From: Escherichia coli
GTDB taxonomy: Bacteria; Pseudomonadota; Gammaproteobacteria; Enterobacterales; Enterobacteriaceae
Length of the DNA stretch: 64,000 nt
Reading direction: 5' to 3' (one strand)
NCBI RefSeq assembly: GCF_030013595.1
Contig: NZ_CP122768.1
Shown piece after piece: positions 26,083 to 26,163 of the stretch. The notes beneath the pieces are model-generated. The model made no database searches and was not told where the DNA came from. It saw nothing but the letters and a program-made list of their open reading frames with translations. Made by a program: the position numbers and the translations under genes. Each line of letters opens with the position of its first letter. Position 1 is the stretch's first letter.

Positions 26083-26089
26083 AAGCGCA

Positions 26090-26140
26090 CGGACAGTCCC
26101 CTCGCTCCTCTGGGGAGAGGGTTAGGGTGAGGGGAACAAA
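26090..26140. repeat. GC-rich imperfect inverted repeat between convergent thiQ and yabI; possible bidirectional terminator or small intergenic repeat
   Basis: ccctcgctcctctggggagagggttagggtgagggg read directly; family not assigned. Confidence 0.4.
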
Positions 26141-26163
26141 CCAGCGCCGATGCAAACTACCTC

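Follow-up and report, generated by a model that had tools for sequence, protein, structure and literature searches.

A BoxC repeat copy between convergent thiQ and yabI in Escherichia coli and its possible role as an RNA 3'-end hairpin

The analysed stretch of DNA (the window) is a 64-kb segment of an Escherichia coli chromosome that includes thiP, thiQ, yabI and araC. The thiQ frame ends with the stop codon TAA at 26080-26082, and the stop codon of the convergent yabI gene is found at 26164-26166 on the minus strand. The spacer in between therefore measures 81 bp (26083-26163), which confirms the extent and the convergent setting given by an earlier reading made from the letters alone (the sequence-only reading). 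The 36-mer quoted there, CCCTCGCTCCTCTGGGGAGAGGGTTAGGGTGAGGGG, is located at 26099-26134, and the repeat element it belongs to lies entirely between both stop codons, i.e., it is intergenic. Homologues of the encoded YabI protein carry the Pfam domain PF09335.

The 8-kb surroundings of thiQ and yabI are about 97% identical to most E. coli genomes, while 100% identity over 8 kb is found only in two pig isolates, namely HCP5S3_I2 and LCP30S3_I5. Positions 22000-30000 of the window (8,001 bp) correspond to 9,337 bp in NZ_CM149870.1 (4426965-4436301), with an annotated IS2 transposase inside. Since both isolates carry this extra IS2 nearby, the source of the window is a strain without that IS2 copy. 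The features of the locus are as follows (N denotes any nucleotide).

25384..26082, plus strand: thiQ coding sequence (thiamine ABC transporter ATPase); open reading frame with the start set by the 699-bp length of K-12 thiQ, name from the RefSeq annotation under the match
26081..26084, minus strand: UUUU run in yabI sense, right after the closing GCGC of the extended hairpin and overlapping the thiQ stop codon; from the folds
26083..26145, plus strand: whole BoxC / PIT / TMECO element, i.e., left flank, three-block core and right flank; from the alignment with ten K-12 copies
26083..26098, plus strand: left conserved flank AAGCGCACGGACAGTC (family consensus ...gc.cGgaCgGTC), nearly the same in the adk-hemH and fimH-gntP copies
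26099..26107, plus strand: block 1 (pyrimidine), CCCTCGCTC; regular expression with substitutions allowed, 1 substitution
26108..26112, plus strand: loop 1, CTCTG; parsed against the consensus CCCTCNCCC-N3-6-GGGNGAGGG-N3-GGGNGAGGG
26112..26134, plus strand: canonical G-quadruplex motif GGGG-AGA-GGG-TTA-GGG-TGA-GGGG ('HPG1'); regular expression
26113..26121, plus strand: block 2 (purine), GGGAGAGGG; pairs with block 1, here with the family's usual G.A mismatch and a T.G wobble
26122..26124, plus strand: loop 2, TTA, which defines 'type A' copies (PMC4666352)
26125..26134, plus strand: block 3 (purine), GGGTGAGGGG; preferred RNA partner of block 1 via a G.U pair
26135..26145, plus strand: right conserved flank AACAAACCAGC (family consensus GAAca..cc.gc); from the alignment of copies
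26146..26163, plus strand: locus-specific remainder of the spacer, GCCGATGCAAACTACCTC; aligns with the yabI-proximal end of REP-bearing alleles
26164..26928, minus strand: yabI coding sequence (DedA family membrane protein), convergent with thiQ; 254-aa open reading frame, RefSeq annotation under the match

The G-rich strand of the element is the thiQ sense strand. Inverted and direct repeats had been noted in the spacer, and we could locate both, i.e., the inverted pair TCCCCTC/GAGGGGA at 26097-26103 and 26129-26135 as well as the direct purine blocks GGGAGAGGG and GGGTGAGGG. The 20-mer GAGAGGGTTAGGGTGAGGGG occurs a single time in the 64-kb window when up to 3 mismatches are allowed (0.00 expected in shuffles). 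The right flank together with G26134 is identical to the fimH-gntP copy GAACAGACCAGC in 11/12 positions.

Next, we compared the element with published repeat families. It is virtually certain, judged by its sequence, to be one more copy of BoxC, also named PIT, TMECO 'type A mm' or HPG1. That is, the repeat family is already known and not a new one, and the element is ordinary in being a further copy of a family described in E. coli since 1992. BoxC was named by Bergler et al. 1992 (see also Bachellier et al. 1999) and PIT by Hoyne and Maher (Hoyne et al. 2000). Holder et al. 2015 (PMC4666352) equate their TMECO pattern CCCTCNCCC-N3-6-GGGNGAGGG-N3-GGGNGAGGG with BoxC and with Hoyne and Maher's PIT, list 23 K-12 copies and count copies that are one position off as mutated TMECOs. 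The stretch 26099-26133 fits the three-block consensus, with [G/T/C/-] after the last block, with one substitution (T for C at 26106). This T is the sole departure from the family consensus; the orthologous allele of strain EC556 has C there and matches the three-block consensus exactly. The 36-nt core is identical in 35/36 positions to the K-12 copies 9, 16, 19 and 22 ('type A mm'; Table 1 of PMC4666352). PMC4666352 does not mention thiQ/yabI, and neither these genes nor the variant core are found in one part of its supplement.

We fetched ten solo K-12 copies, which are present at the published coordinates, and aligned them with the window copy. In these 11 copies, conservation runs past the core (left ...GCACGGAC(A/G)GTC, right GAACA..CC.GC), and the flanks ...GCACGGACAGTC (left) and GAACA.ACCAGC (right) are common to the window copy and K-12 copies. 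The unit thus delimited here spans about 60 bp (~26083-26145), in agreement with the ~56 bp given for BoxC (56 bp from the literature and 50 bp by HMM in PMC2267715). Six of the ten solo K-12 copies are found between convergent genes and none between divergent genes, and a convergent-gene trend is likewise reported by Kaplan et al. 2016 (PMC5100583). Three of the ten (pstB-pstA, fimH-gntP, frlR-yhfS) are within ~70 nt of a REP.

A blastn search of 5,426 complete E. coli genomes with the 81-bp spacer as query yields matches in 5,425 of them; the number of matching places per genome has a median of 19 and ranges from 1 to 34. The sequence is therefore a dispersed repeat, and the genome-wide search proposed in the sequence-only reading clearly returns copies elsewhere. 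That reading had further considered a small intergenic repeat family distinct from REP, which proved right, although the family had been described before. A search for REP arms gives no match and no GTAG/GCCGGATG motif in 26083-26163, so what defines a REP, i.e., an imperfect palindrome of ~35 bp with GCC(G/T)GATG... and a terminal GTAG, is not found in the spacer. The REP units mentioned for other parts of the window are present, with clusters of REP arms (BIME-like) at 31447-31498 and 60763-60844. An Rfam scan of 25500-26800 at E-values up to 10 shows no hit overlapping the spacer. The HPG1 21-mer GGGAGAGGGTTAGGGTGAGGG, described by Kaplan et al. 2016 (PMC5100583) as a proposed G-quadruplex/hairpin/duplex switch, occurs exactly at 26113-26133, within the G-quadruplex match at 26112-26134. 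The window holds three further canonical G-quadruplex motifs, all on the minus strand (46179-46206, 8901-8932 and 19-41), with sequences unrelated to BoxC.

We also studied what occupies the thiQ-yabI spacer in other E. coli genomes, where at least four structural alleles exist. The K-12 spacer has 113 bp with two REPs (BIME) and no BoxC. Such a two-REP allele is found in 4,758/5,426 genomes (about 88%), a count that comprises a variant lacking 12 bp. An O157-type allele with one REP and the remnant of a second covers about 344/5,426 genomes (about 6%), such that REP/BIME elements are found in the spacer of about 94% of E. coli genomes. The BoxC allele is present in at least 182/5,426 genomes (about 3%). 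Full-length matches of 79% identity in O157-type genomes were considered as BoxC alleles and rejected, since they consist of one REP and the second-REP remnant with a similar length.

The adjoining gene ends are variable as well: the last 300 nt of thiQ (25783-26082) and of yabI (26164-26463) show 3-7% divergence between E. coli strains, which is well above the expectation for E. coli core genes. The similarity between the two BoxC alleles that we examined does not exceed their similarity to REP alleles, which suggests an old polymorphism that would have been reshuffled by recombination. The REP-bearing K-12 spacer (2117-2229 of the fetched K-12 stretch) ends with AACCCGCACAAGACTATC. Here, the 10-mer CCCGCACAAG in the right flank of the K-12 REP allele recurs unchanged as the right flank of the BoxC copy at adk-hemH. 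The part AACCCGCAC of the K-12 spacer end also matches the yihR-yihS BoxC copy. The 10-mer prompted the idea that the K-12 REP allele is a gutted BoxC, i.e., that BoxC is ancestral; we discarded it given that the Salmonella and Citrobacter spacers hold a single REP without BoxC.

Other genera were reached via YabI homologues. The Salmonella spacer has 38 bp with one REP (2269-2306 of the fetched stretch), where the thiQ stop codon is the TAG within the REP's GTAG. In Citrobacter, the spacer has 27 bp and the REP overlaps the end of thiQ; in C. freundii (2269-2310 of the fetched stretch), the first REP arm encodes the last thiQ codons and the stop codon, such that the repeat supplies the end of the coding sequence. 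In K. oxytoca, thiQ and yabI overlap, and an I. alba-like contig has a spacer of 23 bp. The spacer of Enterobacter hormaechei is 477 bp long (1369-1845 of the fetched stretch) and carries two BoxC-like copies, at 1811-1843 (1 substitution) and 1429-1464, in opposite orientation, i.e., with the G-rich strand in yabI sense, plus ~350 bp of other non-coding sequence. In the YabI 90% cluster, where we sought E. albertii and E. fergusonii, only E. coli is found among the members listed. The thiQ-yabI spacer is thus a recurrent sink for small repeats, which acquired BoxC in at least two independent events. Judged by the outgroups sampled, REP is more likely the earlier occupant, and BoxC looks derived because Salmonella and Citrobacter have a single REP and no BoxC.

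The three-block pattern reaches much further. Among species-representative genomes, it is found in at least 120 stretches from at least about 25 genomes, each genome with its own flanks. The stretches listed include Verrucomicrobia, Thermodesulfobacteriota, Chloroflexi, Neisseria, Pseudomonas, Gracilibacteria, Bacteroidaceae and one Methanomicrobiaceae MAG; a wide distribution of the motif was already reported, and our scan agrees. In the Methanomicrobiaceae archaeon MAG, an exact three-block motif with TTA loop is located at 2608-2642 of a 2.7-kb contig, which is either real or a binning contaminant. In many copies of the Thermodesulfobacteriota MAG Yes70-41, block 1 is directly preceded by a fourth block, CCCCTCACCC, resulting in a fully symmetric two-arm palindrome. 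This suggests that the three-block form of E. coli could be a truncated version of a four-block palindrome. The MAG GL140_5_metabat_74 carries more than 25 near-identical copies with two alternative sets of conserved flanks (ttgtgggcttgcccacattg and ttgcgggctccgcccgcgtt), which looks like a high-copy lineage-specific family around the same core.

To evaluate RNA structure, we folded the element on both strands. The 44-nt core reaches -24.4 kcal/mol on the plus strand (z -2.6) and -17.5 kcal/mol on the minus strand (z -1.9). For the whole element, energies of -32.4 kcal/mol (plus, 68 nt; z -2.9) and -29.3 kcal/mol (minus, 75 nt; z -2.9) are obtained, where none of 200 shuffles matches the minus-strand energy. 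The both-strand folding proposed with the sequence-only reading thus predicts hairpins on each strand. With the copies found in E. coli genomes, the refuting outcome named in that reading is contradicted on both of its points. The 29-nt inner hairpin of block 1 and block 2 alone has -13.7 kcal/mol. The adk-hemH paralogue folds at -28.4 and -23.9 kcal/mol, and the window stem is weaker because of the C to T exchange at 26106. RNAalifold pairs block 1 with block 3 in 11/11 copies, with 0 compensatory pairs; since the core is nearly invariant, this absence of covariation is silent either way on structure, which therefore gains no support from evolution. Individual folds had also suggested a copy-specific pairing of the outer flanks. 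We rejected this candidate, since own and cross duplex energies do not differ (means of -7.9 vs. -8.0 kcal/mol, permutation p = 0.56, 11 copies).

We then asked whether or not RNA 3' ends are found at BoxC hairpins. For this, the Term-seq tables of Adams et al. 2021 (PMC7815308, Supplementary file 1) were queried for BoxC sequences. Each row provides 50 nt upstream, the 3' end and 10 nt downstream, a format that was calibrated on sgrS. At 7 K-12 BoxC or BoxC-like sites, RNA 3' ends are located 3-6 nt (once 10 nt) past the inner stem. Three are on the G-rich strand (847200-, 3959467-, 3774365+) and four on the C-rich strand (3781065+, which is the primary lldD 3' end, 4231270-, 632098+ and 164636+). 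A rough chance estimate from ~3,000 rows and ~80 strand-specific 10-nt windows gives well under one coincidence. The K-12 sites with 3' ends are perfect-stem or degenerate BoxC copies, while no Term-seq 3' end is found in these data at any of the 13 strict 'type A mm' copies of K-12, i.e., at the subtype to which the window copy belongs. The tables, which stem from K-12 and thus from a strain without BoxC at this locus, have no rows for thiQ or yabI.

None of the 7 sites shows a U-run after the 3' end. According to Dar & Sorek 2018 (PMC6061677), the ends of Rho-dependent transcripts lie just past stable stem-loops that act as a barrier to PNPase and RNase II, and rut sites follow directly after; the Term-seq ends without U-runs at BoxC match this pattern. 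At thiQ-yabI, the C/G ratios in the 80 nt downstream of the hairpin are 2.64 (plus) and 2.15 (minus), which are the 99.8th and 99.1st percentiles of all 80-nt windows in the 64 kb, where such a rut-like signal beside the hairpin is a statistic of composition only.

Since RNA 3' ends are found past the inner BoxC hairpin at 7 K-12 sites, the most likely role of the element would be that of a nuclease-blocking 3' hairpin similar to REP. The BoxC stem-loop would form once transcription of thiBPQ or yabI enters the spacer. Transcription would end further downstream, probably by Rho, because the downstream stretches are strongly C-rich and G-poor in each direction. Exonucleases acting 3' to 5' would then trim the RNA back to the BoxC hairpin and leave a protected 3' end a few nt past the stem, predicted at ~26125 for the thiQ RNA and ~26095 for the yabI RNA. 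On the yabI strand, the extended hairpin with its UUUU may add weak intrinsic termination. That the copy at thiQ-yabI itself serves as such an RNA 3'-end hairpin is, by analogy to the K-12 sites, a candidate role to which we assign slightly less than an even chance. The preference of K-12 copies for convergent gene ends and the REP/BIME elements in this spacer of most E. coli, of Salmonella and of Citrobacter speak for it, whereas the 'type A mm' copies without 3' ends, the adk RNA that passes its BoxC and the stem weakened by T26106 speak against it. For family identity and the RNA-level mechanism taken as one joint claim, we see the scales as balanced.

The sequence-only reading had considered a bidirectional terminator. 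As a canonical bidirectional intrinsic terminator, this is not supported, and we consider a Rho-independent terminator for thiBPQ and yabI very improbable. Stable hairpins on both strands between convergent genes speak for such a terminator, but on the thiQ strand the hairpin is followed by AACAAACCAGCG without a U-tract, and a simple terminator scan finds nothing in the 81-bp spacer. On the yabI strand, the only candidate, missed by the simple scan, is the long imperfect hairpin (~26085-26148), which in the 75-nt fold closes with GCGC and is followed by UUUUAACCU. An A-run ~14-18 nt upstream of the core, i.e., a U-run after the element on the C-rich strand, also recurs at the same position in 5 of the 11 copies (window and four K-12). 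However, the Term-seq ends at paralogues directly follow the inner stem instead, without U-runs. The RNA of adk, whose BoxC is the closest K-12 paralogue and is oriented as for thiQ, continues past the repeat up to a canonical terminator located 60 nt further on (Term-seq 3' end at 497939/40), and at three convergent sites Rho-termination regions are located downstream of BoxC, antisense to tauD, zntA and gntP. In the reporter assays of Hoyne & Maher 2002, neither promoter nor terminator activity was seen, as related by Holder et al. 2015 (PMC4666352). What stands of the terminator proposal is a weaker form, given the RNA 3' ends at the 7 K-12 BoxC hairpins and the UUUU after the extended yabI-strand hairpin.

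Two further explanations place the effect elsewhere or deny one. The element may be a neutral or selfish dispersed repeat without effect on its flanking genes that persists in a permissive spacer between gene ends. We regard this as unlikely, albeit more credible than the other two alternatives. It agrees with the patchy occurrence (BoxC in at least 182/5,426 genomes here, REP alleles in most others), with the repeat-free K. oxytoca and I. alba-like arrangements, with the opposite orientation of the Enterobacter copies, with the destabilizing substitution of the window copy and with the literature, which reports neither strand or gene-class bias nor promoter/terminator activity (PMC4666352). 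Pure drift is, however, hard to square with the same three-block motif in multiple copies in very distant phyla, and the almost invariant core as well as the recurrence of Term-seq 3' ends at BoxC hairpins at 7 sites also argue against neutrality. Alternatively, the G-rich strand, when single-stranded, could form an intrastrand purine-motif triplex or a G-quadruplex that stalls replication or repair and destabilizes the locus, which we deem improbable. The sequence does fit both the triplex consensus and a canonical G-quadruplex motif. CD and NMR indicate a triplex for single-stranded consensus oligonucleotides, and motif loci are more variable between strains (PMC4666352), while CD supports a G-quadruplex/hairpin switch (Kaplan et al. 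2016, PMC5100583). Yet Holder et al. 2015 (PMC4666352) observed neither a triplex in duplex DNA nor in vivo DMS protection, replication in vivo was unaffected by PIT elements (PMC4666352), and one further C.G*G triad is lost with the T at 26106. The locus is indeed hypervariable, since four or more spacer alleles exist and the 300 nt of coding sequence next to the spacer diverge by 3-7%, but REP-bearing alleles are equally variable, so that the variability may belong to the spacer and not to BoxC.

The RNA 3'-end hairpin thus remains our preferred reading. REP/BIME elements are credited with the same job of 3'-end protection. To our knowledge, the BoxC family was never assigned an in vivo function, and we know of no dedicated transposase for it, while REP has RAYT. 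The Term-seq ends at 7 K-12 BoxC hairpins point to a REP-like role as exonuclease barrier and, if this is true, would be the first in vivo molecular phenotype for the long-orphan BoxC/PIT/TMECO family. Taken alone, the thiQ-yabI copy is of little weight, given a family that was catalogued since 1992 and studied in 2000, 2002, 2015 and 2016. Its spacer is nevertheless a compact natural experiment, where the alleles carry one or the other of two unrelated repeat families while the DNA is otherwise orthologous. One could go further and view BoxC and REP/BIME as functionally interchangeable 'RNA 3'-end cassettes', with the thiQ-yabI spacer as a natural allelic swap. We consider this speculative and rather doubtful; if true, interchangeable cassettes could help to explain the multi-copy three-block motif in distant phyla.

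Finally, we relate the element to known systems. With the BoxC/PIT/TMECO copies of K-12 it shares the TTA second loop, the G.A 'mm' position, the GTC and GAAC flanks, the intergenic site and the ~20 copies per genome, while it differs in the extra C to T exchange at 26106 and in its location, given that K-12 has no BoxC at thiQ-yabI. HPG1 has the same 21-mer and, for six of its members, the same convergent-gene setting, but is another name for the BoxC repeat, along with another interpretation of its structure, rather than a separate family. REP/BIME elements occupy the same niche, i.e., 3' intergenic spacers whose transcripts fold into stable hairpins, whereas their sequence is dissimilar to BoxC. 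The protective 3' stem-loops of Rho-dependent transcripts (PMC6061677) form a functional class and not a sequence family. The window copy would be a candidate member of that class based on its stable stem-loop without U-tract, the C-rich and G-poor sequence downstream, and the RNA 3' ends found a few nt past the stem at its paralogues.
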